Shown here: one piece after another, positions 26,421 to 49,916 of the stretch | How positions within the stretch are numbered: the stretch's first letter is position 1 | How the letters are laid out: each line of letters starts with the position of its first letter | From: Patescibacteria group bacterium | GTDB taxonomy: Bacteria > Patescibacteriota > Minisyncoccia > UBA6257 > 2-01-FULL-56-20 | DNA length: 64,000 nt | Direction of reading: 5' to 3' | Assembly (NCBI GenBank): GCA_038077975.1 | Contig: JBBUGM010000006.1 | Location: 4,905-68,904, forward strand | Translations under genes and position numbers: made by a program | Notes under the pieces: model-generated | Seen by the model: only the letters and a program-made list of their open reading frames with translations | Databases searched by the model: none | Told to the model about the DNA's origin: nothing

Positions 26421-26495
26421 GTCATTGCCCGACTAGATCGGGCAATCCAGTTTCGTATTTACATTTTAGATTCTCGGATCGAGTCCGAGAATGAC
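26421..26495. repeat. two-hairpin MITE/REP-like element, copy 1
   Basis: GTCATT-gcccga-ctagatc-gggcaATCC, a 21-nt spacer, then GATTctcgga-tcgag-tccgagAATGAC; hairpin B supplies the last 11 codons of miaA. Confidence 0.5.
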
Positions 26496-27649
26496 AGAGA
26501 GAATTTTTTCACCAACGACTCGGCCTCCTTCTCGCTTTTTATCCAATTTATCCTTTTGTCTTTTCTGAACCACGTCATCTGCCGCTTGGCGTAGGCCCAG
26601 GTATTTTGTTTGATTTGTTTTGCAACTTCCTGCGGAAGCGCCGATTTATGCTGATTTGGCTGATTTATGCTGATCTCTTTAAGAGGCACCGATTGCTCAA
26701 AAATGTTATTTCCTGAGTGGGTCGAAGGATAACATTTTTGAACGCCGCCCTTCGATAAACTCAGGGAAGAATAGCATCCTGCCGCAAGATAATCGATGAT
26801 CTCGCGATAACCAATCGTGTTTATAAGTACCGACGTCCTGCCGTACTTGTTGAGCAATTCTTGCACTTCTTTTACGAGTCCAGCGCGGATCATTTCGTCC
26901 ACGCGGCTTTCTATTCTCTGCCGCAGTTTTACGGGCGGCAATTTTACTCCAAGTTCAAGCGCGTCAAAAAGCGGTTCGCCTTTTTTCCGCTGGGCAGTAA
27001 AGGGTTTTCCGGTTTGGATGGCAACCTCTAGCGCGCGCACGACACGGCGGGGATTTTTGAGGTCAACTATGTAAGCCGCTTCCGGGTCCAGTTTCAAGAG
27101 TTCTTCGGCAACGGAATCTAATCCTTTCTTCTCTATTCTCTCTTTTATCTCCTTGCGTAGCTTCGGATCCGCCTTGACTTCCGGTATGTCTAAATTCTCA
27201 ACGATCGCTTTTACATAAAGTCCCGTGCCGCCAACGAGTATCGGCAGTTTGCCGCGCCGCAATATGCCGCGGATGGCGCGCAAGGCGTCGCGTTTGTAAT
27301 CTGCGAGTGAGTATTCTTCGTCCGGATTTTTGATGTCGATAAGATGATGTGCTATCTTGCTCTTTGCGATTTGCGCTTTGCCCTTTGCGGTGCCGATATC
27401 CATCCCGCGGTATATTTGCCTTGAATCCGCAGAGACAATCTCCCCATTGAATTTTTTGGCGAGCTTAAGCGCGAGTGCGGATTTGCCGCTTGCCGTGGGG
27501 CCCACGATAACCAGTATTTTTGGCAAGGATTTTGTGGCGCGGCGACTCGATGAAGCCAAAAATGCTATTTCCTGAGCTGGTCGAAGGATGGTATTTTTGG
27601 CGGTACCCTTCGACAAGCTCAATGGATGAAAATTACTCGTGTTTGACAT
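26459..27649 (-). CDS. miaA: tRNA dimethylallyltransferase carrying repeat-derived in-frame insertions
   Basis: P-loop GPTASGKS, DSRQIYRGMDIGTAK, YAKRQMTWFR. About 90 aa longer than typical MiaA because of two in-frame copies of a 69-nt palindromic repeat plus a 15-nt microduplication; N-terminal start uncertain. Confidence 0.75.
   Translation of the reverse strand: MSNTSNFHPLSLSKGTAKNTILRPAQEIAFLASSSRRATKSLPKILVIVGPTASGKSALALKLAKKFNGEIVSADSRQIYRGMDIGTAKGKAQIAKSKIAHHLIDIKNPDEEYSLADYKRDALRAIRGILRRGKLPILVGGTGLYVKAIVENLDIPEVKADPKLRKEIKERIEKKGLDSVAEELLKLDPEAAYIVDLKNPRRVVRALEVAIQTGKPFTAQRKKGEPLFDALELGVKLPPVKLRQRIESRVDEMIRAGLVKEVQELLNKYGRTSVLINTIGYREIIDYLAAGCYSSLSLSKGGVQKCYPSTHSGNNIFEQSVPLKEISINQPNQHKSALPQEVAKQIKQNTWAYAKRQMTWFRKDKRINWIKSEKEAESLVKKFSLSFSDSIRESKM
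26698..26766. repeat. 69-nt palindromic repeat, copy A (inside miaA, in frame)
   Basis: aaaaatgttatttcctgagtgggtcgaagg...cccttcgataaactcaggg with inverted arms; encodes the ...SLSLSKGG... insert. Confidence 0.6.
27558..27625. repeat. 69-nt palindromic repeat, copy B (miaA 5' region / N-terminal extension)
   Basis: aaaaatgctatttcctgagctggtcgaagg...cccttcgacaagctcaatgg, about 80% identical to copy A. Confidence 0.6.
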
Positions 27650-27671
27650 AGTTCTTCTTTTCCGCTATAAT
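27643..27671 (+). promoter_or_regulatory. consensus sigma70 promoter TTGACA-N17-TATAAT
   Basis: Perfect -35 and -10 hexamers; drives the small plus-strand gene and overlaps the annotated miaA ATG. Confidence 0.55.
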
Positions 27672-27707
27672 ACCATTAGATTTAACTTTTGGCAAAGGAG
27701 CAATGCG

Positions 27708-27902
27708 ATGAAACGATTCGGATATTTTTTGATGGCAGTGGCTGCTGTTGTGGGCATAGGGTTTGCCGCCAGGCAAATTGCGCGTTTCCGCGACGAGCGC
27801 GACGCGCGCTTGTTGCTGGATCTTCATGACGAAGAGGAGAAAGAGGATGAAAACCTCTTCATGGCCCGTCGTGCAGAGATGCGGCCCCGCTGGATCATGT
27901 AA
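27708..27902 (+). CDS. small membrane protein (64 aa)
   Basis: AAGGAG RBS 8 nt upstream of ATG; one TM helix then a charged tail. Confidence 0.5.
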   Translation: MKRFGYFLMAVAAVVGIGFAARQIARFRDERDARLLLDLHDEEEKEDENLFMARRAEMRPRWIM

Positions 27903-27912
27903 TGTTTGTTTC

Positions 27913-27942
27913 GACCCCGTTTTTCTTCGGAAAACCGGGGTC
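27913..27942 (+). terminator. intrinsic terminator (12-bp stem)
   Basis: gaccccgttttt-cttcgg-aaaaccggggtc. Confidence 0.5.
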
Positions 27943-27972
27943 TTGACTTTTTATAGAGTTCCATGGTATAAT
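27943..27972 (+). promoter_or_regulatory. sigma70-like promoter TTGACT-N18-TATAAT
   Basis: Hexamers close to consensus upstream of the 28047 gene. Confidence 0.45.
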
Positions 27973-28046
27973 GTTAAACAGCAAGACAGTAGTAAAATCC
28001 TCCGTTGCCGGCTTCGGCTGGCGCTAACGGATCAAAGAGGTGATGT

Positions 28047-28355
28047 ATGGATCTCCAAAATGTTCAGATCGTCCTTCTCGTTGCGGGTGTGGCCCTTCTC
28101 ATTGCTTCCGTGGCAGTTTTTCTGCTACGGCGTGCCCATGCAGATGTCCAAGGATCTTTGCAGGAATCTCCGGTTGTGCGGGAGGCTGTTTCGCTTGGGC
28201 CTGGCGACCGCGTCACTTATCCTCATAGGAAGAGGACAGGGAATGGGAAAGCCACTATCTTGAGCATCAAAGACCGGCGCGGTGAACCGTGGGCTCGGAT
28301 GTTCAATGGGTCAAGCTTTCTTTCCCGCCCACTCCGGGAACTGCAGCGAGCCTAA
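28047..28355 (+). CDS. hypothetical membrane-anchored protein
   Basis: AAAGAGGTG RBS, N-terminal TM helix. Confidence 0.45.
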   Translation: MDLQNVQIVLLVAGVALLIASVAVFLLRRAHADVQGSLQESPVVREAVSLGPGDRVTYPHRKRTGNGKATILSIKDRRGEPWARMFNGSSFLSRPLRELQRA

Positions 28356-28470
28356 GACAAGCACAACCACAGCCGTAGCGCATTCCCAAAAGGGCTCCTC
28401 GATTCAATCGCGGGGCCCTTCGAATTTATGGCAGCTTCTCACAAGGATTTTCTCTTATTGGTGTTTTTCG

Positions 28471-28496
28471 TAGCGCTATCCTATAGGATAGCGCTA
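28471..28496. repeat. perfect 26-bp palindrome adjacent to the thrS stop
   Basis: tagcgctatcctataggatagcgcta equals its own reverse complement. Confidence 0.5.
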
Positions 28497-28498
28497 GC

Positions 28499-30250
28499 TT
28501 ATATAGTTTTCTCTTCTATTTCTCTTTGAAGTTGTTCGATGAATTTTTCGGTTTTTACTTCGCCGAGCTGACTTTTGCGGTAATGCCTTACGTTCACCGT
28601 GCCGTTTTTTTCTTCTTTTTCTCCGACAACGAGCACATAAGGGATCTTTCTCATTTCCGCTTCGCGGATGCGTTTACCGAGAGTATCATTCGCATCGCTC
28701 ATTTCTACCCGGATACCGCTTTCGCGGATTTTTGCAAATACGCCGGACGCATACTTGCTGAATTTTTCGCTTAGGGGTAAAACGGCGGCCTGTACAGGCG
28801 CGAGCCACAAAGGGAACGCTCCGGCGAAGTGCTCGATCGCGATGGCCAGGAACCTTTCAAGCGAACCCATGATCGCGGCGTGTATCATTACTATCCTTTC
28901 TTTTTCGCCTTTCTCATTTATGCACGTGAGGTCGAACCTCTCCGGCATGTTGATGTCGAGCTGTATCGTCGCCACTTGCCATTCGCGGCCCAAAGAATCC
29001 TTCGCGAGGAAATCGAGTTTCGGGCCGTAGAAATTGGCTTCACCCATTCCCTCGAATGTTTTGGCTTTTTTGCTTTTCGCTATCTCGCGCAAGATATCCT
29101 CCGCCTTTTTCCAGTCGGCGGCAAACCCCAGGTATTTTTCCGGCTGTTTTGGGTCGTGGAGTGAGATCCGCACCTTGAGTTCGAAGCCGAAGACGCCATA
29201 AAATTCTTCAACGATGTCCCAGATCGCGGAAAATTCTTCCTTTATTTGCGACTGACGGCAAAAAACGTGGGCGTCGTCCTGCGTTATCGCGCGCACCCTG
29301 ACGAGGCCGGAGAGTTCGCCGGTTTGCTCGTCGCGGTAAACTTTGGTCGTCGAGGCGTATCTTTGCGGCAGTTCGCGGTAGCTCCATTGCTTCCTCGCAT
29401 AAATTTGCGTGTGGTGCGGGCAGTTCATCGGCTTTAGGGCGAACAAGTGTTCCTCGCGCGTTTTTATCTTAAAGAGGTCATCCTTGAATTTTTCCCAATG
29501 CCCGCTTTTTTCATAGAGATCTTTTTTCGTGATGTGCGGTATATCAACCTGTTCATATCCGCGCGCTTTGCGGAGTTGCCAGACGAAGTCATCAAGAAGA
29601 TTTCTCACAAGCGTTCCCTTCGGGGTCCAGAGAGGGAGACCGGAGCCCACGAGTTCGGAAAAAGTGAAGAGGTCCAGCGCGGGGCCGAGTATTTTGTGGT
29701 CTCGCTTTTCCGCCTCTGCGCGCATCCTCACGTATTCCTCAAGCTCTTTTTTGGAAGAGAATGCCAGGCCATAGATGCGCTGAAGTTGTGGTTTTTTCTC
29801 GTCTCCACGCCAGTATGCGCCGGCAAGCTTGTCGAGCTTGAAAGCATCTGCGAGTATCTCGGAGGTGTTTTCCACGTGTCCGCCGTGGCAGAGGTCGACA
29901 AAAACATCGCCGGTGTAGTAGGCCGTGAGCTGCAGTTTTTCTTTGGAAAAATCTTTTATGAGATTGAGTTTGAACGGCTGTTTCGAAAAAAGTTTTTTTG
30001 CCTCGGCAAGTGTAAGTTTTTTGCCGGAGAACGGCAGTTTCTGCGCGATAAGCGCACGCATCGTTTTTTCGAATTCTTTAAGATCGTCGGGTGTGAGCGC
30101 GCGCGGCAGAAGAAAATCATAGTAAAAGCCGTTTTCGATCGTGGGGCCGATACCGAGCATGGCGTCGGGGAAATTTTTCAAAACAGCGGCGGCAAGCAAG
30201 TGCGCCAACGAATGGCGAATGTTGTCGAGGGAAGTTTCGTTTTTGACCAT
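28499..30250 (-). CDS. thrS: threonyl-tRNA synthetase (no N-terminal TGS domain)
   Basis: HSLAHLLAAAV editing-domain motif, class II core, C-terminal anticodon-binding domain; start at the ATG giving MVKNE. Confidence 0.85.
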   Translation of the reverse strand: MVKNETSLDNIRHSLAHLLAAAVLKNFPDAMLGIGPTIENGFYYDFLLPRALTPDDLKEFEKTMRALIAQKLPFSGKKLTLAEAKKLFSKQPFKLNLIKDFSKEKLQLTAYYTGDVFVDLCHGGHVENTSEILADAFKLDKLAGAYWRGDEKKPQLQRIYGLAFSSKKELEEYVRMRAEAEKRDHKILGPALDLFTFSELVGSGLPLWTPKGTLVRNLLDDFVWQLRKARGYEQVDIPHITKKDLYEKSGHWEKFKDDLFKIKTREEHLFALKPMNCPHHTQIYARKQWSYRELPQRYASTTKVYRDEQTGELSGLVRVRAITQDDAHVFCRQSQIKEEFSAIWDIVEEFYGVFGFELKVRISLHDPKQPEKYLGFAADWKKAEDILREIAKSKKAKTFEGMGEANFYGPKLDFLAKDSLGREWQVATIQLDINMPERFDLTCINEKGEKERIVMIHAAIMGSLERFLAIAIEHFAGAFPLWLAPVQAAVLPLSEKFSKYASGVFAKIRESGIRVEMSDANDTLGKRIREAEMRKIPYVLVVGEKEEKNGTVNVRHYRKSQLGEVKTEKFIEQLQREIEEKTI

Positions 30251-30312
30251 CTTTCTATTATAACCGCAGTTTGTGTTTAAACGAAACGAGAATTGATATA
30301 TCATTAATAAAT

Positions 30313-31545
30313 ATGCTCGACATCAAACTTCTTCGCGATAGTCCTCAAGTTGTGAAAGACGGCATTGCCGTGAAAGGCGCGGGCCCTAAGCTCGTCGACG
30401 AGTTTTTGCGCCTAGACGGAGAATGGCGAACTTTCACGGCGAATTTGGACGAAAAACGCGCTTTGCAGAATAAATTGAGCAAGGAAAGGAATATCGAAGC
30501 GGCGAAGAAGAACAAAGAAGAGATAAAAGAATTGGAATCAAAATTGGCGGCAACGGAAAAGTCGCGCGAGGAAATATTGTTGCAAATCCCGAACTTGCCG
30601 GATGCGGCCGCTCCCCGAGGCAAAAGCGAGGCGGAAAATAAAGTTCTCCGCGAAGTCGGAAAAAAGCCGAAATTCGATTTTACCCCCAAAGACCATCTCG
30701 AACTTGGCGAGGCCTTGGGCATCATTGATTTCGAGACTGCCTCAAGAGTTTCCGGTTCGGGATTTTACTATCTCAAAAACGACGGCGTGCTACTGGAGTT
30801 CGCGCTTGTGCATTATGCCTTGGATTTTTTGCGGAGCAAAGGATTCGATTTGTGGTTCACGCCGGATTTGGCGCGGGAAAAATATTATCTGGGAACGGGA
30901 TATAATCCCCGCGGTCCGGAGGCGCAGACGTATCTCATCGAAAATTCCGACCTCGGCCTCGTTGCCACCTCCGAGGTGACGCTTGCCGGTATTCACGCGG
31001 GGGAGTCGTTTGCCGCTGAGGCCTTGCCGAAGCGCTACGCCGGCTATTCGCATTGCTTCAGGCAGGAAGCGGGCGCTTACGGCAAGTATTCGCGGGGACT
31101 TTACCGCGTGCATCAGTTCACGAAAGTGGAAATGTACGTCTTCACCCGCCCCGAGGATTCGGCGAAAATGCACGAAGAACTTCTCGCGCTCGAAGAAGAG
31201 CTTTGGCAGGGCCTCAAGGTGCCTTACCGCGTGGTTGAGATATGCACCGGGGACTTAGGCGCTCAGGCATCGAGAAAATTCGACCTCGAAGCGTGGATGC
31301 CCGGCCGCAACGATTGGGGAGAGATCACTTCGACCTCGAACACGACCGATTACCAGGCGCGGCGCCTCAATATCCGATACAAAAAAGGCGGCGAGAAACC
31401 GGAATTCGCGCACACCCTGAATGGCACCGCGATCGCGACTTCGCGGGCGATCATCGCGATATTGGAAAACTACCAGCGCAAGGACGGCAAAGTGGACGTG
31501 CCCAAGGCGTTAGAGAAGTATATGGGGAAGAAAGTGATCGGATGA
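30313..31545 (+). CDS. serS: seryl-tRNA synthetase
   Basis: MLDIKLLRD... N-terminal coiled-coil arm, class II motifs, about 411 aa; divergent from thrS. Confidence 0.9.
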   Translation: MLDIKLLRDSPQVVKDGIAVKGAGPKLVDEFLRLDGEWRTFTANLDEKRALQNKLSKERNIEAAKKNKEEIKELESKLAATEKSREEILLQIPNLPDAAAPRGKSEAENKVLREVGKKPKFDFTPKDHLELGEALGIIDFETASRVSGSGFYYLKNDGVLLEFALVHYALDFLRSKGFDLWFTPDLAREKYYLGTGYNPRGPEAQTYLIENSDLGLVATSEVTLAGIHAGESFAAEALPKRYAGYSHCFRQEAGAYGKYSRGLYRVHQFTKVEMYVFTRPEDSAKMHEELLALEEELWQGLKVPYRVVEICTGDLGAQASRKFDLEAWMPGRNDWGEITSTSNTTDYQARRLNIRYKKGGEKPEFAHTLNGTAIATSRAIIAILENYQRKDGKVDVPKALEKYMGKKVIG

Positions 31546-31706
31546 ATTTTTATTGAGTCGACTTACCCTTTTTGGTTGTAGTCCTATTTTCTTATTCGCG
31601 CGAATAAGAAAATAAGACAATCAAAAACAAACAGAAAGCGAAAAATCTTATTGAACCGTTCGCACGAATGGTTCCATGCGAGGTTTTTGAGCCGATACCG
31701 CCGCAC

Positions 31707-31734
31707 TTGCATTTTTCCGCCAGCGTGTTATAAT
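31707..31734 (+). promoter_or_regulatory. sigma70-like promoter TTGCAT-N16-TATAAT
   Basis: Followed by AAAGGAGG RBS and ATG at 31784. Confidence 0.4.
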
Positions 31735-31783
31735 TGGGCCAGCGTGGGGAAACTCACGACTTTACAGAAAAAGGAGGCTGACC

Positions 31784-32380
31784 ATGTCAAAAGACATGCT
31801 CGGCACTTTGGTAAGAAAGTTGGTCAATGTCCCGGAGGAAGCACTCGGCACGTTGATCGATCTCTCGGAGAAGCTTGCCGGCCCGAACGGTAAGGAGTGG
31901 CTGGTTGCCCTCAAGCATTTCCTTCGCAAGGAAGGCATGGCAATGTTGGAAGTCTTCCGCGTCACGGTCGACTACTCGATGACCATCGAGCAGATGATCG
32001 CCGCGGGCCGCTACGACTGGCAGAACAACGACGTGAACGACAAGCACTTCCCAATTCCGCCCTCGAAACGCGGGAAACAGGAAGTCGCGATCGAACTCAT
32101 CAAATTCGACCGCGATATGGAGTCCAATGAAGTTCTCCGCGAGCTCGACAAGATGGGCCTCCGCTCAGCCGAGTTGCCGGAACTTCTGGCCTTCGGCGCC
32201 GCCTACCCCGAGAAGCAACGTGAATTTCCGGTCGTTGCTCTTGGTTCCGTGTGGCACTACTGGGACGGCGATCGCGGCGTTGCGTGCCTCTGCAGGCACG
32301 CCGGCGGGCGCTACCTCGACCTCCGTTGGTGGTGCGGCAGGTGGTTCTCGCACGGTCGCTTCGCAGCCGTTAGCAAGTAG
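31784..32380 (+). CDS. hypothetical protein
   Basis: 198-aa ORF with strong promoter and RBS; no motif recognised. Confidence 0.5.
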   Translation: MSKDMLGTLVRKLVNVPEEALGTLIDLSEKLAGPNGKEWLVALKHFLRKEGMAMLEVFRVTVDYSMTIEQMIAAGRYDWQNNDVNDKHFPIPPSKRGKQEVAIELIKFDRDMESNEVLRELDKMGLRSAELPELLAFGAAYPEKQREFPVVALGSVWHYWDGDRGVACLCRHAGGRYLDLRWWCGRWFSHGRFAAVSK

Positions 32381-32434
32381 CATTGGTCCTCGGACGCTAG
32401 GATCCTCTGGCCTTTCAGATCCTTTGATCCTTTC

Positions 32435-32474
32435 GCCCGTTGAAACTCCGGTTTCAACGGGCGTATTTTTTTTG
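32435..32474 (+). terminator. intrinsic terminator
   Basis: cgcccgttgaaac-tccgg-tttcaacgggcg followed by tattttttttg. Confidence 0.6.
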
Positions 32475-32508
32475 AGCAAAAAATACGATAGCATGAAAGG
32501 GATATCTT

Positions 32509-33747
32509 ATGGCAAAAGTTTTAACAAAAACACACAGAACGTGGATTGAAATCGATTCGCGGGCGGCGAAGAAGAATTATGATACGTTTCGGAAGTTGAT
32601 CGGCCCTGTTCGACCCCTTCGACAAGCTCAGGGTATAAAAGCTCAGGGCAAGCGCGGAACGCAATTGTGGTCTGTTGTGAAGTCGAATGCCTACGGGCAC
32701 GGGATAGTCGTTTTTTCGAAATTAGCCGACCGCTTAGGGGTCAATGGTTTTTGCGTTGATTCTTTGGTTGAGGGAATTCGTCTGCGCAAAGAAGGAATTA
32801 AAAAGCCGATCTTGGTTCTGGGCCCGACCTTGCCGGCACTACTTCACGAAGCGGCGAAAAGGAAAATAACGATCACAATTTCCAATTTTGATTCTTTGAA
32901 AGTATTAACATCGATTGTAGCTAAAAAAGCTACAATCGACGGAGTGCCGGAATTTCATTTGAAGATCGATACCGGCATGCACCGCCAAGGGTTCTACCTC
33001 GCGGATTTACCAAAGGTTCTTAAATCCCTAAATTCTAAATCCTCAATCCTAAATTCTCGTTTGCGGGGCATCTACACCCACTTCGCTTCGGCAAAAGACA
33101 CGAATTACCCGACTTATACCGAAAAACAATTCGCCGAATTCCAAAAAGCGATAAAGCTTTTCGAAGACGCCGGTTTTCCCGCCGAAGGCGGGTCCGCCTC
33201 TGGCGGAAAGAATTCCATTACCGTCCATTGCGCGGCAACAGGCGGGACACTCGTGAACCCAAAATATCATCTCGATGCCGTGCGAGTTGGCATCGGACTT
33301 TACGGATTATGGCCGTCAAAAGAACTGGAGGTCCAGCTCGGCCGCAAAATCAAACTCTATCCGGTTTTATCATGGCGAGCTGTTGTGAGCGAGGTGAAAA
33401 ATTTGGAGGCAGGGGATTATATTGGTTACGACCTCGTTGAACGCGCCCCGCGGCCGATGAAAATGGCCGTGATCCCCGTTGGCTACTGGCACGGATTGCC
33501 GCGTTCGCTCTCCGGCATCGGTGAAGTGCTTATAAATGGCCGCCGCGCGAAAATTCTTGGCCGCATTTCGATGGACCTCATCGCCGTGGGGCCGGTTACG
33601 GGTGTAAAGCCGGGGGATATCGCGACTTTCATCGGTAAAGACGGCAAAGAAAATTTTCTCGCATTCGACGTCGCGGCGCGCGGCGGCACTATCCACTACG
33701 AACTCTTAACGCGACTTAATCCCTTAATCGAGCGCATCATCCAATAG
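32509..33747 (+). CDS. alr: alanine racemase with two repeat-derived in-frame insertions
   Basis: PLP-lysine motif VVKSNAYGHG and C-terminal racemase domain. Insert 1 (32598-32640) matches one arm of the miaA 69-nt repeat. Insert 2 (33001-33060) is the CTAAATTCTAAATCC AT-rich repeat. Confidence 0.85.
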   Translation: MAKVLTKTHRTWIEIDSRAAKKNYDTFRKLIGPVRPLRQAQGIKAQGKRGTQLWSVVKSNAYGHGIVVFSKLADRLGVNGFCVDSLVEGIRLRKEGIKKPILVLGPTLPALLHEAAKRKITITISNFDSLKVLTSIVAKKATIDGVPEFHLKIDTGMHRQGFYLADLPKVLKSLNSKSSILNSRLRGIYTHFASAKDTNYPTYTEKQFAEFQKAIKLFEDAGFPAEGGSASGGKNSITVHCAATGGTLVNPKYHLDAVRVGIGLYGLWPSKELEVQLGRKIKLYPVLSWRAVVSEVKNLEAGDYIGYDLVERAPRPMKMAVIPVGYWHGLPRSLSGIGEVLINGRRAKILGRISMDLIAVGPVTGVKPGDIATFIGKDGKENFLAFDVAARGGTIHYELLTRLNPLIERIIQ

Positions 33748-33806
33748 AGCACAAAAGTCCAAACCACAAATTACAAACAAATTTGAAACACAAAACGGCG
33801 CGCCGT

Positions 33807-33863
33807 GTCATTCCTGCGGAAGCAGGAATCCAGTCCTGGTTCCCAAATCAAGTTTGGGATGAC
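33807..33863. repeat. two-hairpin MITE/REP-like element, copy 2
   Basis: GTCATTcctgc-ggaa-gcaggAATCC, 9-nt spacer, tcccaaa-tcaag-tttgggaTGAC; same architecture and flanks as 26421-26495 with compensatory stem changes. Confidence 0.5.
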
Positions 33864-33884
33864 GGCATGGCCGTCGGTTTTTTT
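33861..33884 (+). terminator. intrinsic terminator after alr
   Basis: gacggc-atg-gccgtc followed by ggttttttt. Confidence 0.6.
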
Positions 33885-33934
33885 GGATTTTGATATTTGA
33901 ATTTGTGTATTGTTTGTAATTTGGGATTTGTAAT

Positions 33935-34771
33935 TTGGACTTTATGCCAAAAGCAGATGTTTATGTCCCCGACGGCCGCGGCGAGCGCAGAAAAAAGCGC
34001 TTTATTTTTGTCATTGTCATGGTCATTGTCACCGCGTATCTCTCGGTCCTTGCCGCCGGCTGGCTGATTTTGCGTAATCCGGTTTTCCGCATCCAAAATG
34101 TCGAAGTTGTCGGCAATATCGATGTCTCGGGCGAAAGAATAAAAGGAGTTGTTCTTTCGCGCATTGTACGCGGAAGTTTTTGGCGGGCCTTGATTGGCAT
34201 CAACAATGTCCTCATCTGGCCGGAGCGTTTAAGCGCGGAGGACCTCGTTTTTTTACCGGAAGTGAAGAGCGTGGAACTAGAGAAAGATTACGCATCGCGA
34301 AGCGTTTTAATAAACGTTGACGAACGCAAACCGCGCGGCATCTGGTGTCTTGCCTCGCCGCCCGTAGGCGATAACTGTTGGTGGTTCGATGACGCTGGCG
34401 TGCTTTTCCGCCGCGCAATATTCGCCGAAGGAAGCTTGATCACTGTTGTTGTTGACTACTCCCAGGAAAATTTCGGCCTGGGATACAAGATCTTACCGGA
34501 GGAATTCATTGATAATGCCTTTTCCGTTTTCGATGTCGTGCGTAGTAGCGGATTAAGAATCAAAGAGGTACGCCTAAACGACCTTGAACTTGAAGAGGTG
34601 GAGGTTTTGACTTTCGACGGTCCGCGCGTTTTGTTCAGCTTACGTTTTCCGTCCGTTAACGCGCTCGAGGTTATACAAAAATTATTTTCCGCCAAAGGCG
34701 GATCCGCCCCTGGCGGGAAAGATTTGGATTATTTGGATTTCAGAGTGGAAAACAGGGTATACTATAAATAG
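33935..34771 (+). CDS. FtsQ/DivIB-like cell-division protein (TM plus POTRA)
   Basis: Short cytoplasmic tail, one TM, then a POTRA-like segment VFRIQNVEVVGNIDVSGERIKGVV. Confidence 0.55.
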   Translation: MDFMPKADVYVPDGRGERRKKRFIFVIVMVIVTAYLSVLAAGWLILRNPVFRIQNVEVVGNIDVSGERIKGVVLSRIVRGSFWRALIGINNVLIWPERLSAEDLVFLPEVKSVELEKDYASRSVLINVDERKPRGIWCLASPPVGDNCWWFDDAGVLFRRAIFAEGSLITVVVDYSQENFGLGYKILPEEFIDNAFSVFDVVRSSGLRIKEVRLNDLELEEVEVLTFDGPRVLFSLRFPSVNALEVIQKLFSAKGGSAPGGKDLDYLDFRVENRVYYK

Positions 34772-34794
34772 AACTGATTTTTTGGCGGTGCAGC

Positions 34795-37777: not shown

Positions 37778-37786
37778 CACACTTTT

Positions 37787-41403: not shown

Positions 41404-41979
41404 ATGATCCGTTATCGCATCTACATCATTTTCTCCATCATCATTGCTTTGGGCGTGAGCGCCATTTTTTTGGTCTCGCAGGGATATTATCCGGTCGCGC
41501 TTGTGGAAGGCGATTTTGTGAGCGCATATGAGTTCGCGCGCGAATACCGTGCCGCGACTATTTATTACCAAAACCTTTTGAAGACCTACGGTGCCGCCTT
41601 TGAAGAGAAAGAAAAGATCTCGTCCGCCGATCTGGAACTCGCGGTGATCAACAGTTTGATAGAAAATAATTTGATAGCGAAAGGCGCGCGCGCGGAAACG
41701 GGAGAGGACTTCGAATATTTGCTGGAAAACAAATTGAGCAAGTTCGTGGGCGATGCCGAGCTTGAGAAAGCCGCGCTTGCGCTCTACGGCCTCGAGGGCA
41801 ATGAATTCCGCGAAGACGTCCTCATTCCGCAGGCGGAACGGGAGATCTTGGCCGGGCGGCTTTTCTTGCGCGGAGAAAAGATCGAAGATTGGTTGGCAAG
41901 CACCAAGCAGGCGGCGCAGGTTATCATTTTTTCGCCGCAATTCGAATGGAACGGGGAGAGCGTCGTGACCCAACAGTAG
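41404..41979 (+). CDS. hypothetical membrane-anchored protein
   Basis: 191-aa ORF with N-terminal TM. Confidence 0.4.
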   Translation: MIRYRIYIIFSIIIALGVSAIFLVSQGYYPVALVEGDFVSAYEFAREYRAATIYYQNLLKTYGAAFEEKEKISSADLELAVINSLIENNLIAKGARAETGEDFEYLLENKLSKFVGDAELEKAALALYGLEGNEFREDVLIPQAEREILAGRLFLRGEKIEDWLASTKQAAQVIIFSPQFEWNGESVVTQQ

Positions 41980-42016
41980 AAAACCGCTCCGGGCATAGTG
42001 CCGGAGCGGATGTATT

Positions 42017-43096: not shown

Positions 43097-43221
43097 GTTG
43101 TGCTTCCTCGGTTTGTGAATTTATCCTATCGCAAGTTTAATTTTACGATGTTAATTTGTCAATTTCGCGCCTTCATCAACCTTTATGCCGTTTCTGGTCA
43201 TCGGACACGCTATAGAGTACA

Positions 43222-44778
43222 ATGAATCCTGGGTCAATTATCCACATGCTCAATTCTCAATCAAAAGTTAATGACAGGAAGATGCAAGTCGGAGAACTTG
43301 GGACTCCGGCCTTGTCAAAAGAAGAACGCCTCGCTATCGAGAAGTTTTTTTTGGCGAAAGGGCTTCCTCTCGACCGCGCGGTGACTTTTGCCGACGTTAC
43401 GCTTCCCGAGCGCTATTCCGACATCCGCACGCGCTCGGAGGTTTATGATTTTAAGACGGAACTTGTTCCGGGCTTTTCGCTTGCCATTCCGGTTGTGAGT
43501 GCGAACATGGAATCGGTAACGGGTCTTGAGTTATCCGTGGCGCTTGAGTGCGAAGGGGGATTGGCTTTCCCGCCGCAGACCCTGCCGGTCGGCGAGCGCG
43601 TGGAGCTTATCGAACGCATTGCGCGGGCAGATTCCGCTTTTATTGAAAATCCGCTTACGGCAAGGCCGGAGTGGACGCTTAACAAGGCAAAAGAATTGAT
43701 GGCGGAGTATGGCGTGAAGAGTTTGATAGTTACGGACGAGAAGAAGAAAGTAGTCGGCATCTTTACAAAAAGAGATTGGTTCTACGAGAACGACGACAAG
43801 ACATTGGTGGGCGATCTGATGACCAAAAAGGTAATAACGGCGGAGCGCGGCGTTAATTTCGAAAAAGCAGGCGAGATCTTGCGCAAAAATAAAATTGAAA
43901 AACTCCCGCTTGTGGGGAAGCAAGGAGGCCTCGCGGGGCTTATCACCGCTAACGGCCTTTTCTATAAATATCGGCATCCGCGGGCGACGCGTGACGATAT
44001 GGGAAGGTTCGTCCGTACGGGCTCGATCGGCGTCGGCAAATCTTTTAGCGATACGCACCTCAAAGAAGTCGAATCGCAAGTTAAGGCAGGCATATCATTG
44101 CTCTTAGTTGACACTGCAAGGGCGTTTTCGGTGAACACCGAAGAAGCTGTGAAGAGAATAAAAAAAGAATTTCCCGCGCTTCCGCTCGTTGTTGGCAATG
44201 TTTCTACCGCCGAAGGGGCAAAATTTTTATTCGAGACGGGTGCGGATATCGTGAAAGTCGGCCAGGGTCCCGGTTTTGCCTGCCGCACGCGCGCGATCGG
44301 AGTCGGCGTGCCGCAACTCTCCGCCGTTGCGGAATGCGCGGTTATTGCCTCGTGCTACGGTAAAACCGTCATTGCCGACGGAGGAATGAAAAGTCCGGGT
44401 GACGCGGCGAAGGCCTTAATCGCCGGAGCGCGGGCCGTGATGCTGGGCAATATGCTCGTGCGCGCGCAAGAATCCGCCGCGCCGATGTTCGTTGACGAAG
44501 ACGGCAGGCCGGTAAAAAATTATGTCGGTTCTGCGTCTTTCGCCGCGCAGATGGCGCGTCTCGAACGCGGCGATCTCTCGCATCTCCGCCGCCCGGAAGG
44601 CGTAACGAAAGTTGTTCCGGTCACAGGCACGGTGGAAGAGATTGTGAATGACCTAATGCGCGGCTTGAGTTCTACGATGGCTTACTTGGGAGTGCGCAAT
44701 CTCAAAGAACTTCGTGAGCACGGGAGATTTATTTCGCAAACTTCTGCAGGGTATGTGGAGGGCGTGAAGAAAGGATGA
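43222..44778 (+). CDS. IMP dehydrogenase/GMP reductase-family protein with CBS pair
   Basis: TIM-barrel motif VGQGPGFACRTR with catalytic Cys in place; CBS-like segments; atypical N-terminus. Confidence 0.65.
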   Translation: MNPGSIIHMLNSQSKVNDRKMQVGELGTPALSKEERLAIEKFFLAKGLPLDRAVTFADVTLPERYSDIRTRSEVYDFKTELVPGFSLAIPVVSANMESVTGLELSVALECEGGLAFPPQTLPVGERVELIERIARADSAFIENPLTARPEWTLNKAKELMAEYGVKSLIVTDEKKKVVGIFTKRDWFYENDDKTLVGDLMTKKVITAERGVNFEKAGEILRKNKIEKLPLVGKQGGLAGLITANGLFYKYRHPRATRDDMGRFVRTGSIGVGKSFSDTHLKEVESQVKAGISLLLVDTARAFSVNTEEAVKRIKKEFPALPLVVGNVSTAEGAKFLFETGADIVKVGQGPGFACRTRAIGVGVPQLSAVAECAVIASCYGKTVIADGGMKSPGDAAKALIAGARAVMLGNMLVRAQESAAPMFVDEDGRPVKNYVGSASFAAQMARLERGDLSHLRRPEGVTKVVPVTGTVEEIVNDLMRGLSSTMAYLGVRNLKELREHGRFISQTSAGYVEGVKKG

Positions 44779-44979
44779 CTTGTCATTGCGAGGCCGAAGC
44801 CGCCAGGCGAAGGCCGTGGCAATCCATAAATGCTAGAATGAAACACATGAGAGAAACTATTTCAACCAAAAAATCCGCCCAAAATATTCAAGACGAAATT
44901 TTCAGCAAGATGTCGCCTGGAAAAAAAATAAAATCAGCCGCAGAGCTTGCGGCGCTGTGCTTAAAACTTAACCGCCTCA

Positions 44980-45552
44980 ATGGAGCTAACCAGTCAGGAA
45001 AAAATTCTGATTGATGTAGCAAGAACGCTTGAAAAGCTACACCTCCCGTATTTTGTTACAGGTGGTTTTGCGGTTTCTCTCTGGGGTCGCCCTCGAGCCA
45101 CTTTTGACGTGGACATCGTGATTCAGCTTATGAACTCGGATATCAATCCACTTGCTAAGGCGCTAAAAGAAGTTTCTAAATTGGGTTACATAGACGAAGA
45201 CATGATGAAAGACGCTGTCAAATGGCACCGAGAATTTAATTTCATTGATCCGGAAAGCGGCATGAAGGTGGATTTTATGGTTAGTCCCAATGACGAGTTC
45301 TCCCGTTCAAGATTTAAACGGAAGAGCGCGAAAGAAATCGGTGGACAGCAAGTATATTTTACATCACCGGAGGACTTGATATTGAGCAAACTCTTATGGC
45401 AAAAGGAATCCGGCTCCGAATTGCAGCTTAGAGATGTGGAATCGATCATCAAAATTTCTGGTCGTAAGCTCGACAGGTCTTATTTGGAAGAATGGGCAAG
45501 AAAATTGGGCGTTTGGGATGTTTTGGACGGCATTTTAGAAGACGCGGCATAG
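44980..45552 (+). CDS. predicted nucleotidyltransferase-fold protein
   Basis: YFVTGGFAVSLWGRPRATFDVDIVI NTase-like core; preceded by a small overlapping ORF (about 44838-45014). Confidence 0.45.
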   Translation: MELTSQEKILIDVARTLEKLHLPYFVTGGFAVSLWGRPRATFDVDIVIQLMNSDINPLAKALKEVSKLGYIDEDMMKDAVKWHREFNFIDPESGMKVDFMVSPNDEFSRSRFKRKSAKEIGGQQVYFTSPEDLILSKLLWQKESGSELQLRDVESIIKISGRKLDRSYLEEWARKLGVWDVLDGILEDAA

Positions 45553-45660
45553 TTCTGGTTGCCGGCTTTTCCCCAATTCCGCGCCCTTGCGCGGTTCTTC
45601 TTTTTTTGCAATGATGAAGGCAGGAATTGAACTTGAAAATTCAAGAAGAGGAGGACTCGA

Positions 45661-48399
45661 ATGAGTCGAAACCCGAAAGAGCAAGACAGCAAGCGAGATC
45701 CGCAAGCAGAACAGGCAGAGAAAGAAAAACAGCAAGTGATGCGGTTTTCGAAAAAACTGCGTCCGTATCTCAAAAAGTCAGGCCGTATTCGCAACCAGCA
45801 AGTTGTGCAGGCGTCCAATGTCGAAAAGAACAAGGCCCGCGGTTTTCTGGCCAAACTTGTCGAACTGGGATACTTGATCAACGTTGCCGATTCAGAAGAC
45901 GGCTGTACATGGTATTTCTCGAACGAAGAAGGTTTTTACGAATCCGAAGAGCTCTACAAACTCATCCCCGAACAAGAGCGGAACAGAATTTTGGAACACA
46001 TCGATGATGAAGTCATCACGCTCGACAGTTTGGCCAATGCGTTGTATGGCAACCGAGCGCGTGGAGTGAACTTCTTGGAGACATTCCTTGATTATTATGT
46101 TGACCTGGGATTGATCCAGTTCAGCAACAAGGAAGACGGATATTTACTGACCGAGCGTGGCGCTGAACTTGGCGTTGATGCTCAGTCCGTGAGAACTCTC
46201 GAGGCCACCGCACTTGAAAACGATATTTTCGTTAAGAGCGAAGAAAACGCAGAGCTTCCCGCGTCTTTGAAGACAGTGGGAGAAGCTTTGAAACAGGATA
46301 TCGTGAACAAAACGGTTCCCGTTATCGACCTTACCAAAGAACTTGGCGGCAAGGACCTCAAAATCCTTTTTGTCGGCGAAGTTCTCTACGGCAGTCAGTA
46401 CACCGACCAAGAGCTTCTTGACTGGGTGCTTGACGCTACGGACAAACCCAACCTCATTATCACGAGCGGGCTTGTTCAAGGCAGGTTTGAGACCAAGAAC
46501 AAGGCGAAGACGAGGATGCTCGCGGAAACGGGCGGTCTCCACAGGATCGAAACCCAATTCCATTCGGCCGGCATGTTGCTCGATTGGTTCGAGAAGATCG
46601 CGACCAACAGGGTTTGTCTGATCCAGAGCGATGACGATTGGCGTCTCGCCGAAGATTATGCGACCTTGATGCATCTTGCCGAAGGCAAAAACCCCTGGAA
46701 GTTTGGCGTTGATTGGACCAGTTTTTCTGCCGAAATGAAGCGTCGCCTTGAAAACAAGGAATTGCGGCGCAAGATCCGCATTCAGTGGGAAATCATTCAA
46801 GCGTACATGGGACGCATTGGTCGTTCGCTTCTGAACAAAAAGGAAGTGAAAGCCAGAATTGGCATTCGCAAGAGCGAATATCGCCTGATCATCGAGACCA
46901 TGGTTGCGAAACGCAACAACTTCGATTACCCGAAGGAATACGAAAAAGTCGTGAACGTTGAAGCTCTCTATGGCAATATCGGTAAACGCATTGTCACTCC
47001 CGATACCTTGCGCCTCAAAGTCAGAGAGGGTAAGGAGATCAGAGTTACCCATAATGCCGGATTTTCGGACATCACTCAATATCAGGACACGATCCAACAC
47101 CTTGATGCGATCGCGAGACACCTCGGCCTTTCCAGACAGGAATTGCCCTGGGTGCTTGCCGATTTCCACCAAGAATCCCTTTTCGGCGAATACCTGATGG
47201 GAACCTGGATCATGAACCTGCCGGGCATGCAGAACACGATGCCTGCGGCCGCATACACGCTCAAAGAATGGAACGCGAAGATCCTTGAATCTAAGGAACG
47301 GAGACAAAGCCGGGTTCGCAAAGAACCTGCTTCGCCCGCTGCGACGGAAATTAATTTCTGCGCAGATGGCCGTATCCGTATCCGGCTGATGAATCGACAC
47401 GTGATGGAAGTTCTCGCTGCGCAAAAAGGTGAAAAGGAACGAAGAGAAGTTGGTGTCCTTGGAACCGATCTGCAGTTCGGCTCGATCACCAATTGGCCCG
47501 AACTTTCCGCCAAGTTTCTCGACTACGGCCTCTATGGTCGCAGGGCGACGAAACTCTGGCTGAACGGCGACATCATCCACGGCAACATTTACCCGCAGCA
47601 TACCGCGGAGAGCAGGCCGATGCGTTTGACCTCTCTGCACGCTCAAAAGAAATTCGCTTTTAACTTGCTTGCTCCGCTGATCCTTGACGCCCCGAACTTG
47701 AATGATTGCGCGGCTTGGCTTGGCAACCATGAATGGAACAACTTTGATGCCAAGCGTTCCGGCGACAGCCCTCTCACCTTTCTTGAGATCGGCCTCCAAG
47801 GCGTTCTCATGGAAAGGAAGCGCGTGGGTACCGAAACCCCGCTCGAGAGAGCCATGACCGTCAGCCGGATCCGCTGGCGCGATACGCACAATCCGCAGGG
47901 CGACATCATCAACTGGCCTTTCTTCGCCGACACGATTTGCGGCTTCAAGGTTGCCATTCAGCACATGTGGCAGCCGTTTGCCGGAAAGACGCCGGCCAAT
48001 GAAGGCAAAAAGTGGCTCAAGAACATGGCACGCGCGGCAAGAGGATTTGACCTTTTGCTTGGCGGCGACAAGCACTCTGTTTGGATGGCTGGACTTGGCG
48101 ACAAGTTCATCGTTCAGGCGGGTGCGGGTGCGAGCCAAAGCGGCTATGAACTTGCGCGCGGACTCATGTCCACGGTGATGTTCACACTTGTCGAATTTTC
48201 GAACCGCGACGGCATTACCGTTGAGTTCGTGCCCTGGGAATTTTTGCTGAACAACTATGAATTCCAATGCCCGGCCTACAAAGGCAGGGATGCGGAATTT
48301 GTTCGTCCGGCTCCGGGGACTAAGGCGTACAAACAAGGCAAGATGGCTCCGGCCATCGAAGAGATGATCGAAGACCTGACTGCCTATCCCGAAGTCTAA
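45661..48399 (+). CDS. large hypothetical protein: N-terminal wHTH-like region plus C-terminal degenerate metallophosphatase-like motifs
   Basis: GAGGAGG RBS; 912 aa; C-terminal half has DLQFG, GDIIHGN, GNHEW, GGDKH in calcineurin-like order. Antisense 730-aa ORF judged a shadow. Confidence 0.6.
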   Translation: MSRNPKEQDSKRDPQAEQAEKEKQQVMRFSKKLRPYLKKSGRIRNQQVVQASNVEKNKARGFLAKLVELGYLINVADSEDGCTWYFSNEEGFYESEELYKLIPEQERNRILEHIDDEVITLDSLANALYGNRARGVNFLETFLDYYVDLGLIQFSNKEDGYLLTERGAELGVDAQSVRTLEATALENDIFVKSEENAELPASLKTVGEALKQDIVNKTVPVIDLTKELGGKDLKILFVGEVLYGSQYTDQELLDWVLDATDKPNLIITSGLVQGRFETKNKAKTRMLAETGGLHRIETQFHSAGMLLDWFEKIATNRVCLIQSDDDWRLAEDYATLMHLAEGKNPWKFGVDWTSFSAEMKRRLENKELRRKIRIQWEIIQAYMGRIGRSLLNKKEVKARIGIRKSEYRLIIETMVAKRNNFDYPKEYEKVVNVEALYGNIGKRIVTPDTLRLKVREGKEIRVTHNAGFSDITQYQDTIQHLDAIARHLGLSRQELPWVLADFHQESLFGEYLMGTWIMNLPGMQNTMPAAAYTLKEWNAKILESKERRQSRVRKEPASPAATEINFCADGRIRIRLMNRHVMEVLAAQKGEKERREVGVLGTDLQFGSITNWPELSAKFLDYGLYGRRATKLWLNGDIIHGNIYPQHTAESRPMRLTSLHAQKKFAFNLLAPLILDAPNLNDCAAWLGNHEWNNFDAKRSGDSPLTFLEIGLQGVLMERKRVGTETPLERAMTVSRIRWRDTHNPQGDIINWPFFADTICGFKVAIQHMWQPFAGKTPANEGKKWLKNMARAARGFDLLLGGDKHSVWMAGLGDKFIVQAGAGASQSGYELARGLMSTVMFTLVEFSNRDGITVEFVPWEFLLNNYEFQCPAYKGRDAEFVRPAPGTKAYKQGKMAPAIEEMIEDLTAYPEV

Positions 48400-48405
48400 A
48401 AAATA

Positions 48406-48441
48406 TGGCCCCTGCGCAATGCGCCGGGGCCTTTTTGTTTC
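48406..48441. terminator. bidirectional intrinsic terminator
   Basis: ggcccctgcgcaatgcgccggggcc followed by tttttgtttcttttc, between convergent genes. Confidence 0.55.
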
Positions 48442-48446
48442 TTTTC

Positions 48447-48992
48447 TTAAAATGTTCCGTCTATCGCGGCGAGGATTCCTGTTCGATCACTTTGCATATA
48501 GAGCGGATTTTTGCGGTAAGGAAAGTGGCGGCGGAATTTCTTGTTGCGCACTTCAACCCAAAGGCGGAATTGCGAATCCCAGCGCGTGTTCCAATAAGGA
48601 CGTCCCAGTTCTCTGTTGAGCTTCACTCGGCGCTGCCTCATATTTTCGAAAGATTTGCTTCCCTTGCCTCTGTAATAGCGTTTGGCCTGACGCGTGTCCC
48701 AGTGGATTACATACGGTTTATCGGTGTTTTGCGCGCCATCGCCAACATGGTGGAAAGCGCAAAGCGTGATGCCGTTTTCCGGGGAATTCACGTCCCAGCC
48801 GCAGCCCTTATAGTGAGCATCGTAATATCCGCGCGGCGCGATGTGATGCACCTGAAGATGCGTTTTGTTGCGGCACCTCTCCCACTTCTTTGTTCCCGCG
48901 TTGTATGTCATAAAACAGCACTGATGTCCGTCGCGTTCAAGTATCCAGAGGCGTTGTGATTTGGTGAGGCCAGGAACTTTTTCTTTTGCCAC
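48447..48992 (-). CDS. HNH endonuclease
   Basis: RDGHQC...C...LQVHHIAP...NGITLCAFHH HNH/Zn-finger motif, 181 aa. Confidence 0.75.
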   Translation of the reverse strand: MAKEKVPGLTKSQRLWILERDGHQCCFMTYNAGTKKWERCRNKTHLQVHHIAPRGYYDAHYKGCGWDVNSPENGITLCAFHHVGDGAQNTDKPYVIHWDTRQAKRYYRGKGSKSFENMRQRRVKLNRELGRPYWNTRWDSQFRLWVEVRNKKFRRHFPYRKNPLYMQSDRTGILAAIDGTF

Positions 48993-49036
48993 AATGCACC
49001 GCCGATTTTGAAGGTCTGTGCTTATTATACCAGGCT

Positions 49037-49073
49037 ATGGAAGTCCGACTTCCATTAGGAAGTCGGACTTCAT
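49037..49073. promoter_or_regulatory. tandem palindromic operator-like sites in the divergent HNH/pcm promoter region
   Basis: atGGAAGTCcGACTTCCat followed by aGGAAGTCgGACTTCat. Confidence 0.4.
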
Positions 49074-49085
49074 AAAATTAGAGCA

Positions 49086-49790
49086 ATGGCTCGTACCAAC
49101 AAAGAACTTGCTGAAGAGCTCATCCGCGACGGATATTTGAAGTCGCCGCTTTTGATCAGGGCCTTTCGCGCGATCAACCGCAAAGATTTCGTTCCGAAAG
49201 AATTTTGGGACGAGGCATACGGAAATTATCCGCTCGATATCGGCGAGAGGCAGACGATCTCGCAGCCGTTAACGGTCGCTTTTATGCTCGAGCTTCTTTC
49301 GTCGCAGCCAGGAGAAAACATTTTGGATATTGGCACGGGTTCTGGATGGGTGGCCGCTATTTTGGCCTACGTGGTTAGCCAAAACAGCGGAGATCAAAAT
49401 GTCGGAAGAGTTATCTCAATCGAGCGCATCAAAAAACTTTCAGAAAGTGCAGAGAAAAATTTGAGAAAATATGGATTTATAAAAAAAGGAATTTTAAAAT
49501 TTATCGTCGGTGATGGCTCGCGTGGGTATGAAGCGGAAGCTCCATATGACAAAATTATTGTCGGAGCTGCCGTTCAGGTGGCGGAGATCCGCCGAAGCCC
49601 AGAAGGGCGAAGGAGGACCGCCGCGGCAGGGGAGCGAATTCCCATAGCATGGAAGAAGCAACTTAAGGTGGGAGGCAGAATAGTCGCGCCTGTCGGAAAT
49701 TCCGTGGTCGTCGTCGACAAAATTTCGGAAAAGAAGTTTCGCTCTCGCGAATATTTTGGGTTCAGTTTTGTTCCGCTTGTGAAAGGATAA
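49086..49790 (+). CDS. pcm: protein-L-isoaspartate O-methyltransferase
   Basis: ERQTISQPLTVAFMLELL and LDIGTGSGW SAM-binding motifs. Confidence 0.8.
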   Translation: MARTNKELAEELIRDGYLKSPLLIRAFRAINRKDFVPKEFWDEAYGNYPLDIGERQTISQPLTVAFMLELLSSQPGENILDIGTGSGWVAAILAYVVSQNSGDQNVGRVISIERIKKLSESAEKNLRKYGFIKKGILKFIVGDGSRGYEAEAPYDKIIVGAAVQVAEIRRSPEGRRRTAAAGERIPIAWKKQLKVGGRIVAPVGNSVVVVDKISEKKFRSREYFGFSFVPLVKG

Positions 49791-49815
49791 TCGGACAGCG
49801 GTAGCTAAAAATATT

Positions 49816-49916
49816 TGTCATTCTCGGACTTGATCCGAGAATCCAGACAATGCCCTTCGGGACACACGTCTTCGACTGCGGCCATGGACTAGATTCCCGC
49901 TTTCGCGGGAATGACA
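49816..49916. repeat. two-hairpin MITE/REP-like element, copy 3 (longest)
   Basis: tGTCATTctcgga-cttgatc-cgagaATCC, 42-nt spacer, GATTcccgc-tttc-gcgggAATGACa; terminal inverted repeats GTCATT / AATGAC. Confidence 0.55.

Follow-up and report, generated by a model that had tools for sequence, protein, structure and literature searches.

The stretch of DNA analysed here (the window) comprises 64,000 nucleotides of contig JBBUGM010000006.1 (positions 4,905 to 68,904, forward strand; GenBank assembly GCA_038077975.1) from a groundwater Patescibacteria metagenome-assembled genome (MAG; Hainich, 0.1 μm filter fraction). It contains exactly three copies of a short two-hairpin element, one at the end of miaA, one behind alr and one beside pcm, and each copy is a convergent pair of one oriented module around a unique spacer. 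The elements are NTS/SRM hairpin repeats (SRM, Ssn-related motif) of the dRS3 lineage, the targets of the Ssn GIY-YIG single-stranded DNA (ssDNA) nucleases (PMC11893778), and represent a known and very widespread family in a new host.

Repeat elements in the window

Read from the outside inwards, a module starts with GTC, continues into a hairpin that begins with AT(T) (7–9 bp stem, 4–5 nt loop) and ends with C(C/T)A(G/A). Its length is approximately 28–30 nt and its schematic form GTC-ATT[stem]-loop-[stem]AAT-C(C/T)AG. Element 1 (26421–26495, 75 bp) consists of module L1 (26421–26450, + strand; GTC ATTGCCCGA ctaga TCGGGCAAT CCAG) and module R1 (26466–26495, - strand; GTC ATTCTCGGA ctcga TCCGAGAAT CTAA), which are separated by a non-conserved stretch of 15 nt (23 nt between the stems). 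In element 2 (33807–33863, 57 bp), just 2 nt lie between the CCAG and CTGG tails of L2 (33807–33833, + strand; GTC ATTCCTGC ggaa GCAGGAAT CCAG) and R2 (33836–33863, - strand; GTC A TCCCAAA cttga TTTGGGA A CCAG). R2 is slightly decayed, its closing pair having been lost through one substitution. Element 3 (49817–49915, 99 bp) is formed by L3 (49817–49846, + strand; GTC ATTCTCGGA cttga TCCGAGAAT CCAG) and R3 (49889–49915, - strand; GTC ATTCCCGC gaaa GCGGGAAT CTAG) with a unique spacer of 42 nt between the modules and 50 nt between the stems. These are, within 1 nt, the three copies of one two-hairpin architecture that an earlier note on this DNA had reported. The TCNAG-type loop ascribed there to every copy is present at four ends; the two others have GGAA and GAAA tetraloops.

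GTC is kept at all six ends. The C directly 3' of the palindrome is kept at five of them, and at R2 it follows an unpaired A. Stem ATTCTCGGA is used twice (R1 and L3), so that five different stems are found among the six ends.

A covariance model was built from 60 modules, the six of the window included, and was run on the window with filters off. The six ends, being part of the training set, were recovered at E = 3e-9 to 1.5e-4 (L1, 38.1 bits, E = 2.2e-7; R1, 41 bits, E = 4.1e-8; L2, 26.9 bits, E = 1.5e-4; R2, 28.3 bits, E = 6.7e-5; L3, 45.3 bits), and no further copy was detected in the window, the next-best match having E ~1. Scanning both strands for GTC[AT][TC] plus hairpin yielded the same six ends only, besides AT-rich and tRNA hairpins without the flanks. 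With the search pattern suggested in the earlier note, four matches were obtained in the window (0.52 expected), three of which were the elements; the fourth (45270–45294) is without hairpin. A search of the window against Rfam at gathering thresholds returned a tRNA only and no family for these elements. On folding as ssDNA, two hairpins per element were obtained on either strand (z = -4.6 to -6.0). The spacers of elements 1 and 3 had no counterpart in other genomes and hence are not remnants of a common internal sequence. As they match nothing, the conserved unit is the module alone, as in Neisseria dRS3-RS-dRS3.

Occurrence in other genomes

GTDB species genomes (1.2e12 positions) were scanned with GTCATTCTCGGA-N5-TCCGAGAAT, which has 21 fixed bases. 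Exact matches were present in at least 118 stretches, compared to approximately 0.3 expected by chance. Among the matches listed were Alphaproteobacteria (including Rickettsiales and a complete Rhizobiales chromosome), Gammaproteobacteria (Cysteiniphilum and Marinicella isolates), Fibrobacter, Treponema and Dehalococcoidales, together with the candidate-phyla-radiation (CPR) lineages Uhrbacteria, Saccharibacteria, Peribacteria and Gracilibacteria. SRM pairs were found in Uhrbacteria (L015) and Saccharibacteria (L081), single hairpins in Peribacteria (L084) and Gracilibacteria (L088). Some gut bins named 'Ruminococcus gnavus' or 'Bacteroidaceae' also matched; a 123-bp element of theirs is the same as in gut alphaproteobacterial MAGs, so that these bins may be contaminated. 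In viral contigs, the ATTCTCGGA hairpin gave no match.

For an inventory of pair architecture, 832 kb from the matched stretches were searched for GTCAY plus hairpin, and 332 modules were obtained. Neighbours within 300 bp were convergent in 83 cases, divergent in 52 and on the same strand in 27, and the spacers of convergent pairs measured 4–93 nt. An identical stem at both ends was seen in only one of 78 convergent pairs. Unlike ends (77 of 78) are the rule, and in many genomes the repeat occurs most often as a short convergent pair with unlike ends, not as a lone hairpin.

The individual modules of the window recur as well. The R3 hairpin is present in a module of Uhrbacteria (L015), there with the tail CCAG instead of CTAG. 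An intact version of R2, GTCATCCCAAACTTGATTTGGGATC, was found in L111, a near-identical L2 stem in L050 and an L1-like stem in L115. Modules of 26–30 nt are near-identical between distant phyla, which points to horizontal spread. The repeat family, which had been suspected to resemble MITEs (miniature inverted-repeat transposable elements) or repetitive extragenic palindromes (REPs), is genuine and has copies beyond the window. Rather than a lack of further copies and of a common alignment, which the earlier note had named as the case against a family, hundreds of copies in other genomes were found, and one structure model fits all of them.

Several matched genomes had more complex arrangements. 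In Rhizobiales IMCC20636 (L073, 2625–3421), SRM pairs form a tandem array with a 230-bp period. Gut alphaproteobacterial MAGs, such as those of L040, L113 and L117, contain SRM tandem arrays or dense mosaics of NIME/BIME-like appearance, in which the flanks are themselves repeats. The MAG of L111 has three stem dialects in common with the window and at 4960–5000 and 5535–5640 a further GTCAT-type hairpin dialect (GTCATCTCGACCG ... CGGTCGAGATGAC) beside an apparent recombinase gene remnant. A 144-aa open reading frame (ORF) between hairpins in L111 was rejected as a partner protein, as it had no Pfam match and by eye looks like a remnant of a recombinase gene.

Covariation of the stems

To avoid circularity, sequences for covariation analysis were picked by their flanks alone (GTCAY-N19-RTCY). 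This selection gave 314 matches, versus 50 in shuffled loci, and the number of paired positions per sequence was bimodal, with either 1–5 or 8–9 of 9. The final set comprised 136 distinct sequences with 38 different stems; these did not match the scan pattern, background matches were kept, and the set was compared to 500 shuffles and to alignments in which the partner column was slid by 1–3 positions. Standard pairs occupied 84.6% of cells, compared to 64.4% after shuffling and 23–44% after sliding. Cells altered on both sides numbered 240 (70.5 shuffled, 37–74 slid), and the covariation score was 0.488 (0.165 shuffled, 0.038–0.173 slid). None of the 500 shuffles reached the observed values.

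The compensatory stem changes proposed from the three copies are real, since eight of nine stem pairs were altered on both sides in these 136 sequences, and the hairpin structure is clearly constrained. The accompanying proposal of selection on structure rather than on sequence held for its first half only. Sequence is constrained as well, because the flanks are invariant, stem dialects recur across phyla, and palindrome changes that preserve the structure abolish the activity of the nuclease SsnA (PMC11893778).

Relation to NTS and Ssn-related motifs

Because the stem ATTCCCGC-GAAA-GCGGGAAT resembled Neisseria dRS3, the literature led to Chenal et al. 2025 (PMC11893778). According to this study, about half of the dRS3 copies belong to a longer oriented repeat, NTS, and NTS-like SRMs are found in many bacterial phyla, spatially linked to SsnA, a 94-aa single-domain GIY-YIG protein of family cd10448. 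SsnA binds the hairpin solely as ssDNA and solely on the motif strand, and cuts a few nt upstream; RNA and double-stranded DNA are no substrates. Cleavage depends most on the three bases that precede the palindrome, binding on the C directly behind it. Ssn systems were characterised in Neisseria and Wolbachia, the SRM survey covered mainly RefSeq genomes, and the term 'Patescibacteria' is absent from the main text (PMC11893778).

In R3, 27 of 28 bases agree with the Neisseria NTS consensus CGTCATTCCCGCGMAVGCGGGAATCYRG, and a perfect dRS3 (ATTCCC-N8-GGGAAT) is included. The single mismatch is within the tolerance of at most one used for NTS in PMC11893778. With the SRM pattern of the same study (HGTCWYN(0-2)YYVSBRHN(0-5)WNVSBRGN(0-2)RNCYNB), L3 and R3 were matched exactly, versus 0.28 matches expected per window; R1 deviates by one mismatch, L1 and L2 by two each, and R2 by more than three. 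A Neisseria-like host was rejected: neither the DNA uptake sequence GCCGTCTGAA nor its AT- or AG-extended form or the Kingella-type variant was found, and MiaA is that of Patescibacteria.

Cassettes with ssn genes and interpretation of the window elements

In other genomes, small GIY-YIG ORFs are located exactly between convergent modules, namely twice in Saccharibacteria (L081) and once each in Rickettsiales (L018), Rhizobiales (L022) and Hyphomicrobiales (L109, disrupted). The cassette layout is GTCATTCTCGGA...ATCC, approximately 10–40 nt, ATG...stop, approximately 10 nt and GGAT...ATGAC, with an overall length of approximately 340–390 bp. A GIY-YIG ORF (~95–112 aa, gene ~290 bp) was present in all five convergent pairs with an interior of 289–345 bp, and the four intact ORFs matched Pfam PF01541 (GIY-YIG) at E = 5e-11 to 2e-16. 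A further groundwater genome (L132) contributed two more hairpin-bracketed cassettes. When the L081 protein was used as query in a protein search, at least 7345 relatives of approximately 95–105 aa were obtained; many are encoded on very short contigs, and some bear the name Patescibacteria or Pacebacteria. We assign the cassette proteins tentatively to cd10448 on account of their size, single domain, SRM context and the sequence signature of that family. Among solved structures, only a weak match to a UPF0213 GIY-YIG protein was obtained and no Ssn structure. A candidate ssn for the present organism from the protein search was discarded, as it belonged to a different groundwater project.

Because the same pair ends bracket ssn in other genomes, the elements of the window, which are pairs of SRMs, probably represent ssn-less miniatures of the SRM-ssn-SRM cassette. 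Of the features of a classical MITE, the elements have inverted modules at both ends and, in other genomes, a counterpart that carries a gene between the same ends; a target-site duplication was not found.

In the mechanism proposed here, the motif hairpin would form once the DNA is single-stranded. By analogy with Neisseria and Wolbachia, a single-domain GIY-YIG Ssn of ~95 aa would then bind the motif-strand hairpin as ssDNA and cut a few nt 5' of the motif. As a convergent pair has one motif per strand with the GTC ends pointing outward, the predicted cuts would fall just outside both ends of the element. The three elements would be ssn-less derivatives of a selfish SRM-ssn-SRM cassette, MITE-like and built like dRS3-RS-dRS3 (NIME). 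Stems would covary because the hairpin must form, and GTC, the trailing C and the stem dialects would be kept because the protein reads them.

Several results weigh against this interpretation. No ssn homologue was detected in the window and its 16 kb extension (motif scan; best tblastn E ~1). Only six hairpins, with five different stems, are present in these ~80 kb; since SsnA is inactive on altered palindromes (PMC11893778), one enzyme may not serve all six, and some hairpins may be relics. The five dialects could stem from separate invasions, as relics of these, or be served by enzymes more tolerant than Neisseria SsnA. A flanking direct repeat was absent in 76 of 81 pairs, and no target-site duplication was found. 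No presence/absence polymorphism was seen either: around elements 1 and 2, identity between all Hainich assemblies is 100%, which implies that these insertions are fixed in the population. In a search for empty sites, the joined flanks of 78 pairs gave only repeat-array matches at other loci, and for miaA a nucleotide-level comparison is impossible, the nearest MiaA homologues being just 58–61% identical. To our knowledge, transposition by Ssn has never been shown experimentally. PMC11893778 goes no further than to note a resemblance to an insertion sequence. We infer both the action of an Ssn on the copies present in this organism and the spread of the pairs as mobile units, the latter from the architecture only, as searches for a target-site duplication, an empty site and polymorphism were all negative.

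A wider and much more tentative reading is possible. The ssn-less pairs might be the non-autonomous elements of a GIY-YIG, ssDNA-hairpin-guided type of mobile DNA that crosses phyla, minimal CPR genomes included, and is driven by a nuclease without known strand transfer, with heterologous ends as the rule. In the present genome they would perhaps persist without a resident Ssn, co-opted as the C-terminus of miaA and as part of the alr terminator.

Gene context and alternative explanations

The gene miaA (26459–27649, - strand; IPP transferase, Pfam IPPT, E = 1.4e-73) ends inside element 1. Its frame closes with ctG TCA TTC TCG GAC TCG ATC CGA GAA TCT AAA ATG TAA, so that the 11 C-terminal residues SFSDSIRESKM and the stop are read from the element, through R1, in agreement with the earlier note. 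The TAA starts at the last base of R1 (CTAA tail) and runs on into the spacer. MiaA homologues finish near KKFL plus 0–10 residues. A terminator-like hairpin at 26387–26408, scored on both strands, is common to the convergent genes lon and miaA, and element 1 lies between this hairpin and the body of miaA. Element 2 is located between the stop of alr (33747) and a terminator-like hairpin on the + strand (33860–33876; TGACGGCatgGCCGTCG followed by seven T), which starts with TGAC, the last four bases of the element. Both are enclosed by a larger inverted repeat (33754–33943), noticed earlier around the element, which is AT-rich and the arms of which were placed here at ~33754–33795 and 33900–33943. 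This repeat is unique in the window and would be able to fold into a long stem (RNA fold, -75.7 kcal/mol, z = -6.7). Element 3 is intergenic, with pcm on one side and a 905-aa ORF on the other.

Given this context, the hairpins might act mainly at the RNA level, as host-selected stabilisers of 3' untranslated regions or as terminator helpers, with the repeat family as a mere source or irrelevant. Elements 1 and 2 do lie in the 3' regions of miaA, lon and alr beside terminator-like hairpins, element 2 contributes 4 nt to the alr terminator stem, and covariation alone does not distinguish an RNA from a DNA hairpin. Moreover, REP elements in E. coli stabilise upstream mRNA. We nevertheless consider this explanation unlikely. 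The elements were rejected as intrinsic terminators, since T runs are missing behind all six hairpins and the terminator-like sites at 26387–26408 and 33860–33876 are separate hairpins; element 3 adjoins no terminator at all. With one motif per strand, any transcript would contain one sense and one antisense copy, as expected of terminal inverted repeats in DNA, and the asymmetric GTC...C flanks are kept across phyla whatever the gene context. As to the earlier suggestion of selection on RNA or cruciform structure, the structure in question is most likely an ssDNA hairpin and not RNA, because SsnA does not bind RNA (PMC11893778) and one motif is present per strand.

It is even less likely that the hairpins exist as target sites for integration of phages or of IS110/Piv-type elements. 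In favour is the perfect dRS3 within R3, since integration of phages at dRS3 has been documented in Neisseria. However, no recombinase or prophage adjoins any of the three elements, and the sole gene repeatedly bracketed by the hairpins in other genomes is ssn. Use as a target would also presuppose the repeats and leave their existence unexplained.

Slightly less probable still is that the hairpins are REP/BIME-type repeats kept by a REP-associated tyrosine transposase (RAYT; IS200/IS605-like Y1 transposase) instead of Ssn. The logic would be the same, with oriented ssDNA hairpins, mosaic arrays and repeats that flank their own enzyme gene, and in L065 one Y1_Tnp gene (Pfam E = 1e-31) is indeed situated between two such hairpins. 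This gene (L065, 529–1144; inserted between ...GGCTTTAA and GTGGATTC...) is, however, of IS200 type with its own subterminal hairpins and constitutes a secondary insertion in the spacer of a 69-bp pair; L048 and L079 carry the uninterrupted ...CCAGAGGCTTTAAGTGGATTC... All five tight cassettes hold GIY-YIG and none Y1, and the ~80 kb of this organism are free of Y1 genes. The 5' signature of REPs is typically GTAG, whereas the hairpins here have GTCAT.

Chance palindromes or ordinary look-alike terminators, conceivable in view of only three copies in 64 kb and the frequency of short palindromes, can practically be dismissed by the pattern statistics, by covariance model E values down to 3e-9 and by the exact recurrence of the same 26–30 nt modules at hundreds of places in other phyla.

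Other observations in and near the window

A second, unrelated repeat family was noticed within miaA (- strand), with copies at 26692–26768 and 27550–27625. They are 86% identical over 43 nt and consist of interleaved inverted repeats (A-B-A'-B'). The reading frame of miaA passes through both copies, which are translated to 'HPLSLSKGTAKNTILRPAQEIAFLA', part of an N-terminal extension, and to 'SSLSLSKGGVQKCYPSTHSGNNIFEQ', part of an internal insertion that is lacking in most homologues. A weaker copy is present at 32600–32640 in the 5' part of alr, with the core CTGAGCTTGTCGAAGG in the N-terminal extension. Also within miaA (26640–26674, - strand), a 19-nt tandem repeat (GCYGATTTATGCTGAT x2) encodes 'ISINQPNQHKSA'. 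Insertions of a similar kind ('LINAD...ISINQ...HKSA') are found at this place in several MiaA homologues from other Patescibacteria and suggest a recurrent hotspot for in-frame repeat insertion.

Elsewhere in the window, a single ORF of 2269 aa (2620–9429, + strand; matching gene call of 2245 aa with Rpb2 and Rpb1 Pfam domains) appears to be a fusion of rpoB and rpoC. Upstream of lon (~17170–23690, + strand), genes for a proteasome subunit, an AAA ATPase and two proteins of the Pup-ligase family are accompanied by a 49-aa ORF; such a Pup-proteasome-like cluster seems unusual for a Patescibacteria genome. Approximately 9.4 kb past the end of the window (L125, 21376–21848), a gene for a 536-aa reverse transcriptase (RVT_1) starts, which possibly belongs to a group II intron or a retron.

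Significance and comparison with known systems

The dRS3/NIME repeats (2000) and NTS/SRM-Ssn (2025) are already known. The present analysis adds a host lineage that is new, the finding that short convergent pairs with unlike ends dominate, and a case in which an essential gene takes its end from such an element. With this, the range of the Ssn/SRM system, whose characterisation dates from 2025, reaches ultra-small groundwater Patescibacteria, and the miaA case illustrates that such elements rewrite essential-gene ends in a streamlined genome. The six ends are ready test substrates for Ssn specificity, which is of biotechnological interest with respect to programmable ssDNA cutting.

The closest known system is NTS/SRM-Ssn. 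The same module is used, (C/T)GTCAT plus a palindrome of 8–9 bp plus ATC(C/T)(A/G)G, with GTC and the trailing C kept, and the ssn genes of other genomes lie between convergent copies of the hairpins. The window differs in its groundwater Patescibacteria host, a low copy number and five stems among six ends, and its copies are only short ssn-less pairs, with no ssn in ~80 kb of sequence.

Neisseria dRS3/NIME (Parkhill 2000; Bentley 2007, PMC1797815) likewise consists of two inverted hairpin repeats around a variable spacer of approximately 20–200 bp without conserved sequence. NIMEs were described as Neisseria-specific and typically form long arrays beside surface-protein genes, whereas the units of the window are isolated, lie at the ends of housekeeping genes and occur in an unrelated phylum. 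As only one of the six ends, R3, fits strict dRS3, arrays are lacking and the host is a member of the Patescibacteria, the elements were not assigned to dRS3/NIME proper; their architecture is analogous.

With Rickettsia palindromic elements and Correia/ERIC-type MITEs, the elements share a small palindromic repeat that is read as coding sequence, here at the end of MiaA. No sequence relationship exists, element 1 replaces a gene end and interrupts no domain, and no target-site duplication was found. The REP/BIME-RAYT system also comprises oriented extragenic palindromes that are read as ssDNA hairpins, often in inverted pairs, and an enzyme gene flanked by the repeats; in the present family, the enzyme is a GIY-YIG nuclease instead of a Y1 (HUH) transposase and the 5' signature is a different one.

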